Assembly (NCBI GenBank): GCA_035421345.1 | Contig: DAOLWT010000001.1 | Span: 1-31,760 of the forward strand | Source of the DNA: Bacteroidales bacterium | Lineage (GTDB): Bacteria > Bacteroidota > Bacteroidia > Bacteroidales > CG2-30-32-10 | Reading direction: 5' to 3' | Length of the DNA: 31,760 nt | Shown here: positions 135 to 252 of the stretch, piece by piece | How the letters are laid out: the number at the start of each line of letters is the position of its first letter | Numbering within the stretch: position 1 is the stretch's first letter | Position numbers and translations under genes: made by a program | The notes under the pieces: model-generated | Databases searched by the model: none | Told to the model about the DNA's origin: nothing | Seen by the model: only the letters and a program-made list of their open reading frames with translations

Positions 135-252
135 TTATACCAATTGTTAATTTAAAATAATCCAACGGATATTTTAAATTTTACAATGGTAATACCGATG
201 ACAAAGATGTTATAGTACAATTTATTGGACTATTACATCTATGCAATCGGTA
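135..252. mobile_element. 118-bp double-hairpin insertion element, copy 1
   Basis: Matches 8291-8408 at 115 of 118 positions by manual alignment. It consists of two tandem imperfect palindromes and interrupts a coding frame. Confidence 0.85.

Follow-up and report, generated by a model that had tools for sequence, protein, structure and literature searches.

The first 31,760 nucleotides of contig DAOLWT010000001.1 in the Bacteroidales bacterium assembly GCA_035421345.1, hereafter the window, raise the question of why the same short hairpin-forming element interrupts both the main Rhs gene and a RAYT gene. An earlier note, made from the sequence alone, had described a 118-bp element at 135-252 and 8291-8408, moved by an HUH-type mechanism without target duplication, and had suggested that its excision could act as a reversible switch that couples full-length Rhs production to RAYT activity. 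Our analysis indicates that the element is most likely an orphan MITE (a miniature transposable element with inverted repeats) of a new family with a T-N-A target-site duplication, and that the two copies are fixed, gene-disrupting insertions. Coordinates refer to the window and its plus strand unless stated otherwise.

The two copies are nearly identical, as the earlier note had reported: positions 134-252 and 8290-8408 form a direct repeat of 119 nt in which 116 positions agree and 3 are mismatched. The boundaries of the element were set by aligning 41 full copies with their flanks, which gave a 115-bp core (TACCAATTG...CAATCGGTA). Copy A (138-252) lies inside the main Rhs gene and copy B (8294-8408) inside codon 9 of the RAYT gene, and their cores differ at 3 of 115 positions. 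The core ends in terminal inverted repeats of the form TACCRATTG, with TACCAATTG and TACCGATTG as the two ends, and 8 of 9 positions match at the tip. In the consensus, the imperfect inverted repeat reaches about 26 nt, of which about 19 match; the inverted ends of a MITE are therefore present. The body consists of two back-to-back hairpins, one built around each end, which in copy A occupy 138-191 (hairpin 1) and 193-252 (hairpin 2). Folding of the element as DNA (-28.7 kcal/mol, z -9.1) and as RNA (-39.7 kcal/mol, z -8.2) supports the earlier description of two tandem hairpins, and in both cases 0 of 200 shuffles were predicted to be as stable. The core has stop codons in all six frames and is, as is usual for MITEs, small and non-coding.

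The flanks of the element carry a short direct repeat. In the host assembly (G000; 2.25 Mb, 340 contigs, 81.6% complete, 31.8% GC), the left flank is TTA at 73 and TAA at 13 of 95 ends, while the right flank is TTA at 69 and TAA at 11 of 87 ends. Among the 57 elements with two ends, the pairs are TTA/TTA (35), TAA/TAA (4) or mixed (6), i.e., the middle base is concordant in 39 of 45 pairs (Fisher p=0.007). Copies in G004, an assembly that is 95% complete and belongs to another genus of the same family, were located by an exact scan for TWATACCRATTG, which gave 73 matches vs 2 for the reversed control. Here, the same triplet is found on both sides in 20 of 22 pairs (p=1e-4), with TTA and TAA each frequent, and a single copy has TGA on either side (TGA...TGA). 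Since the triplet varies among copies yet agrees across each copy, the flanking 3-bp T-N-A direct repeat is a target-site duplication. Copy A follows this pattern, with TTA at 135-137 and at 253-255, and the 118 bp removed in the earlier note thus correspond to the 115-bp element plus one copy of the duplication. The fixed-length direct duplication of a MITE is accordingly seen at 3 bp, with copy B as the exception: the TTA on its left (8291-8293) is part of a non-canonical junction, as the triplet on its right (8409-8411) is AAA and no repeat matches. The earlier statement that no duplication is common to both sites is therefore literally true, but the TTA on both sides of copy A had been missed. 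Insertion without duplication is contradicted by the concordant pairs in G000 and G004 and by the TGA...TGA copy. A consistent duplication across more copies was what the earlier note had said would point to a DDE-driven MITE, and both genomes show it. As a separate observation, position -4 of the left flank is rich in A/G.

The element is not particular to the Rhs/RAYT locus, since it occurs at many loci in the host and also in relatives. The earlier note had called for a genome search for further copies, and blastn found 213 matching segments in G000, which merge to 136 loci on 108 contigs with unrelated flanks, the many dispersed copies typical of a MITE. Of these loci, 50 are at least 100 nt long, 52 are 60-99 nt and 34 are shorter, and together the family takes up 0.5% of the assembly. 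Size classes of 80-83 nt and 54-55 nt arose by internal deletion and retain both ends. In the G000 copies, the start of hairpin 2 always adjoins the right end of hairpin 1, and this constant junction shows one family rather than two free modules. The element family was detected in 12 of 40 relatives searched, mostly from the same bacterial family. Copies in G004 are 92-95% identical to copy A, and 5 of 115 positions distinguish the consensus of G000 from that of G004. Membership of copies A and B in the G004 subfamily would have hinted at transfer of the island, but was rejected as they agree at only 2 of these 5 diagnostic positions. An Rfam search with the element gave no family match, only sub-threshold miRNA-hairpin noise, and the left-end 22-mer has no true match in a contig collection of 185,579 species; its sole match, inside a Christensenellaceae coding region, is due to chance. 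This MITE family (115 bp, TACCRATTG ends, T-N-A duplication), common to several genera of an uncultured Bacteroidales family, is apparently undescribed.

Shorter forms are also present in the window. Of the two relatives listed in the earlier note, the one at 31464-31495 is real and represents a 26-nt mini-derivative of the stem base of hairpin 2 (31467-31492), flanked by TTA (31464-31466) and TAA (31493-31495). The one given as 8017-8033 is really a solo right-end remnant of 26 nt on the minus strand (8018-8043). Additionally, another high-copy repeat, about 230 bp long and unrelated to the element, extends from 31530 to the contig end at 31760 and has 88 blastn matches genome-wide. Some 115-bp copies are fused to this repeat via a variant left end, TTAGATAGATTGTAAATTT, e.g., at 31600-31620, and such fusions are also found on contigs C129, C155, C82 and C77. 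In G004, four copies (L077, L083, L084 and L085, on contigs C7, C25 and, twice, C26) share flanks on both sides, ccttaaaa-type on the left and aataagtta on the right. The MITE is therefore nested in a larger repeated unit there, and a second G004 group (L075, L082 and L086) likewise has the MITE inside a larger repeat.

Copy A breaks the main Rhs gene. The contig starts inside this gene, and the 3' end of its repeat region (1-150), as defined by alignment to full-length Rhs, ends in an element-encoded YTNC-stop; an upstream RHS_repeat gene of 452+ aa is visible in other assemblies. The severed C-terminal part (254-1420, with an ATG open reading frame at 341-1420) holds the Rhs-associated core and the toxin tip. 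TIGR03696 (Rhs_assc_core) matches residues 81-162 of this part with 27.9 bits, which is under the cut-off of 32.5, and the core begins 81 residues downstream of the break; three other modules score above the TIGR03696 cut-off. Deletion of 135-252 fuses ...LYGSSRYGVLN to YNKTIAEK... in frame, and no gap opens at the break in the alignment to the full-length Rhs proteins from G001 (a frame of 2584 aa) and G039, e.g., ...LYGSSRIGVLNRN.... These full-length proteins span the break and agree with the earlier claim that exact removal of 118 bp restores the Rhs frame. Translation likewise confirmed the YTNC-stop tail that had been described on both interrupted frames.

Two further observations concern the Rhs genes. 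The Rhs cores in the window (375-392 and paralogues) and in G004 read N-LPIPIGM-GNV, whereas those of G001 and G039 read NH-LG; the difference is a 5-residue in-frame insert at the conserved motif. Compared with L069 (Logan ERR14064716), the Rhs array and the RAYT gene (1-9228) form a strain-variable island. In this 98.5%-identical strain, synteny starts at 9228, just past a repetitive extragenic palindromic sequence (REP) at 9191-9212, and the upstream side is occupied by PorZ/RecO genes instead.

Copy B breaks the RAYT gene in a similar manner. The 5' stub (8265-8306) has 9 native codons followed by the YTNC-stop of the element. The 3' part (8410-8952; 180 codons; PF01797) has intact HUH (NHVHL) and Tyr (NYIHNN) motifs and matches NF047646 (REP_Tyr_transpos) over profile positions 9-146 with 93.6 bits (cut-off 80), i.e., both the equivalog score and the two motifs identify it as a RAYT. 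Deletion of 8291-8408 yields a 189-aa RAYT beginning MSEKYKTAEKEKAYFVTFT. The G012 orthologue, which is 71% identical, also begins MSEKYKTAEKEKAYFVTFT, the G010 orthologue has the nearly identical start MSEKYKTADKDKAYFVTFT, and members of this protein family are usually 189 aa long. Thus, the restored 189-aa frame of the earlier note holds. Comparison with the loci of relatives, another check that had been proposed, was run, and Rhs and RAYT relatives (orthologues or paralogues from other genera) are uninterrupted, which gives the contrast between filled and empty sites that characterizes a MITE insertion. Since the relatives are uninterrupted at both junctions, both genes were whole before the insertions.

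The RAYT gene also has repeats of another kind at its sides. GC-rich REPs that are unrelated to the 118-bp element lie upstream (8059-8139; REP_a at 8059 and 8090, REP_b at 8115), and a further REP_a copy lies downstream (9191-9212). Five of the 6 genome copies of the 22-mer REP_a fall in the window, and GC-rich palindromes are found upstream of RAYTs in relatives as well. RAYTs are single-copy genes with their own specific REPs or REPINs on their flanks, which defines the REPIN-RAYT association (PMC3337134), and REP_a and REP_b are likely the own REPs of this RAYT. The AT-rich 115-bp element sits within the RAYT gene and not beside it.

Whether the insertions behave as a switch was assessed in ten independent public assemblies of the species (NCBI, ENA, JGI and Logan), found via the neighbouring YhcG-like protein. 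Site A is filled in 4 of 4 spanning assemblies and site B in 7 of 7, with 0 mismatches in the element, and this set includes a strain that is only 99.0% identical in the surrounding DNA. Three more MITE sites (on contigs C35, C11 and C58) are likewise filled in every assembly that covers them. Among 5.8 billion proteins, no intact near-identical RAYT was found; forms with at least 96% identity are all truncated (163 or 126 aa), and the closest intact 189-aa relative in this collection is 75% identical. Within the population sampled, the two insertions have gone to fixation. These results do not support a reversible switch, with the reservation that consensus assemblies could miss rare excision. 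Empty-site alleles were found at neither position in the public assemblies, and as the sites are filled throughout, this is the outcome that the earlier note had equated with simple pseudogenisation.

The placement of the other copies differs strongly from random. After clean removal, only 2 of the 57 paired G000 copies lie in a long open reading frame, vs 74% of random TTA/TAA sites, where a frame counted as long if it had 100 aa or more, with 30 aa or more to either side of the site. One of these 2 is copy A and the other lies on contig C134, and copy B is a third genic case, near the start codon. For 10 of the 57, the triplet that was duplicated serves as the TAA stop codon of an open reading frame of at least 100 aa. 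Insertion at a stop codon is a harmless landing place in which the gene keeps its stop.

In the mechanism that we propose, a transposase acting in trans would cleave T-N-A targets, chiefly TTA or TAA, with a stagger of 3 bp. This enzyme would be a DDE transposase of the IS5 family (IS427/IS1031 groups) or of the PIF/Harbinger type. The element has been amplified to about 136 loci, nearly all of them intergenic. Two copies hit dispensable selfish genes 8 kb apart, where frameshift and early stop inactivated both: copy A severed the Rhs shell from its first toxin tip, and copy B divided the RAYT behind codon 9. A TWA duplication is characteristic of PIF/Harbinger elements, and bacterial IS5 targets are typically 3 bp (PMC4482050); the duplication found here is of this TWA/TNA kind. 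As no partner was found, we infer the transposase class from the element, and the inverted ends together with the 3-bp T-N-A duplication point to the DDE class of IS5 or PIF/Harbinger. For the same reason, the MITE family may be immobile today.

The search for a partner covered both element ends and transposase genes. MITEs of the IS5 or PIF/Harbinger type share their ends with an autonomous element, but such shared ends were found neither in G000 (81.6% complete) nor among the IS5-type elements of G004, G010, G002 and G012. In neither G000 nor G004 did we find paired ends 0.3-4 kb apart or orphan ends that lead into a transposase gene. Orphan ends in G000 proved to be truncated fragments of the element. 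The 20 unpaired end matches in G004 were either MITEs whose partner end is mutated or bare 12-mers by genes that look ordinary, judged by eye from their N-termini, and a decayed IS4-like remnant beside one 12-mer has no inverted partner. In the assembled G000, there is no DDE_Tnp_4 or NF033580 match, and its two DDE_Tnp_1 loci are without TACCRATTG ends. The DDE_Tnp_1, DDE_Tnp_4 and NF033580 loci of G004, G010, G008, G002 and G012 were rejected as partners on account of their unrelated ends. IS5-type elements with 3-bp duplications do occur in this bacterial family, and NF033580-type elements are present in G004, G010 and G002. G012 carries at least 9 copies (L038-L046) of a DDE_Tnp_4 (Harbinger-type) insertion sequence of 1.03 kb. 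This insertion sequence has the ends AGASATTATATAAGTTAG and makes 3-bp AWT (ATT/AAT) duplications. The bare 12-mer TWATACCRATTG is an observation of its own: it occurs at least 13 times in G004 (L094-L113) followed by unrelated sequence, several times just 5' of ordinary-looking genes, and these occurrences could represent scars of solo ends or else an independent motif.

Several findings weigh against reading the element as an orphan MITE of this kind. A duplication is missing at copy B, its ancestral site, as seen in orthologue DNA, is without TTA (GCAGAAAAGG or GCAGATAAGG-like), and its gain relative to that site is exactly 118 bp. A perfect duplication at copy B would need at least 2 later substitutions in 6 flank bases, vs 3 of 115 inside the element. 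The triplet in G000 is biased in element orientation (130 TTA to 24 TAA, p=8e-19), which is not predicted by a simple symmetric-target model. Neither G000 (81.6% complete) nor G004, in which IS110-type, rve and IS630 genes were not searched, yielded an autonomous element with TACCRATTG ends, and the IS5-type elements of relatives carry unrelated ends of the GAGG/GAAAC type. Finally, filled/empty polymorphism within the species was seen at 0 of 5 sites in consensus assemblies, which bears on current mobility.

Copy B and the TTA bias in G000 would both be explained if the element carried its flanking triplet and excised seamlessly, either by piggyBac-like overhang transfer or by a site-specific recombinase acting on a triplet-junction circle. 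The flank repeats would then be a crossover core and not a repaired stagger, reversal would be precise by design, and the Rhs and RAYT knock-outs could revert precisely. Copy B does read as TTA plus core in a site without TTA, and TTA in element orientation accounts for 84% of G000 copies vs 40% in G004. However, the G004 triplets in element orientation are 29 TTA to 44 TAA, and 6 to 6 when copies in larger repeats are counted once, while it follows from the TGA...TGA copy that the target supplies the triplet. Copies with the same middle base are not grouped together on the element tree (G000 P=0.09, G004 P=0.83), and inheritance of this base with the element was therefore rejected. Empty or revertant alleles were absent at 5 sites; IS110-type genes were not searched. 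We thus regard an element that carries its triplet as quite unlikely, and seamless insertion and excision by such a mechanism, which is not known to have been described for bacterial MITEs, as similarly so.

The mechanism of the earlier note starts from the same copy B, which adds exactly 118 bp without duplication. According to this explanation, the element is REP/REPIN- or IS200/IS605-like and is moved as a single strand without duplication by an HUH Y1 enzyme, this RAYT or another, and its excision reversibly couples Rhs and RAYT expression. The two strong hairpins and the genuine RAYT within the locus are consistent with it. IS200/IS605-type insertion, as in IS608, keeps only one flank constant and does not require inverted ends. 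In contrast, both flanks are conserved here and agree with each other, including in the TGA...TGA copy, and terminal inverted repeats are present, i.e., the left-only target and the lack of inverted repeats of non-autonomous IS200/IS605 elements are not seen. Features of RAYT-mobilised REPINs or REPs are also missing, as the element does not flank a cognate RAYT, does not co-occur with it and does not insert without duplication, a feature that copy B alone fits. The RAYT has its own GC-rich REPs on its flanks while the element sits within the RAYT, and the genome's sole further Y1 match (contig C287) is weak. Element and RAYT are independent in 40 relatives (both in 7, element only in 5, RAYT only in 16, neither in 12; odds ratio 1.05, where the relatives are not independent samples), and G001 and G002 have about 20 element matches each and no RAYT match. 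Neither the assemblies nor the protein collection hold empty alleles. An HUH mechanism is therefore very unlikely, and what stands of the earlier proposal is that the element is non-autonomous and mobile and interrupts both genes. A third explanation would be that the copies are structural or regulatory hairpins of the host, such as terminators or mRNA stabilisers, which spread by recombination, and that the genic copies are accidents of gene conversion. The copies are indeed nearly all intergenic, often at gene 3' ends, and no transposase was found, but hairpins of this kind are hard to reconcile with sharp ends and a 3-bp duplication at more than 100 unrelated sites, with interrupted coding sequence, with the same 115-bp unit in different genera or with the lack of an Rfam family match. 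We find this origin extremely improbable.

An orphan MITE can be compared with several known systems. Tourist-like MITEs (mPing; PIF/Harbinger) and MITEs of the IS5 family (IS427/IS1031) are likewise short and non-coding with inverted ends and high copy number, have 3-bp TTA/TAA (T-N-A) duplications and frequently land on TAA stop codons. They differ from the element described here in that no matching transposase or autonomous copy was found for it, its TACCRATTG ends differ from those of the IS5 elements of relatives, and it has two tandem hairpins, one per end, instead of one long hairpin. The element also resembles Correia/NEMIS of Neisseria, ERIC, RUP and BOX, which are about 100-150 bp, form hairpins, are abundant and have no known parent transposase. 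Correia elements duplicate TA. The element differs from Correia/NEMIS in its 3-bp duplication, the absence of sequence similarity and its host, an uncultured Bacteroidales. Internal-deletion size classes and occasional strain-specific disruption of coding genes are shared with Correia/NEMIS and other orphan MITEs, and orphan status is common to many bacterial MITEs (PMC10969869).

REPINs and REPs mobilised by RAYTs are similar in that they form hairpins, are abundant and mostly extragenic, and here a RAYT is present in the locus (PMC3116915, PMC3337134). Unlike in REPINs, the repeats that flank the RAYT belong to another, GC-rich family, the element has inverted ends and a 3-bp duplication, and it inactivates the RAYT. 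Rickettsia palindromic elements (RPEs) are palindromic repeats inside protein-coding genes (PMC10969869), a location that copies A and B share. However, RPEs are in frame and translated, whereas the 118 bp inserted here cause a frameshift and carry stops in six frames. Because of the frameshift and the stops in all frames, genic copies are knock-outs, and they are rare (2 of 57).

The switch-like pair of insertions is thus best read as ordinary insertional inactivation by an abundant MITE. The family also breaks assemblies, as 38 element segments touch contig ends in G000, and its copies could possibly be used as a strain marker. It is a curiosity of this locus that a RAYT, itself a domesticated transposase, has been knocked out by a MITE.
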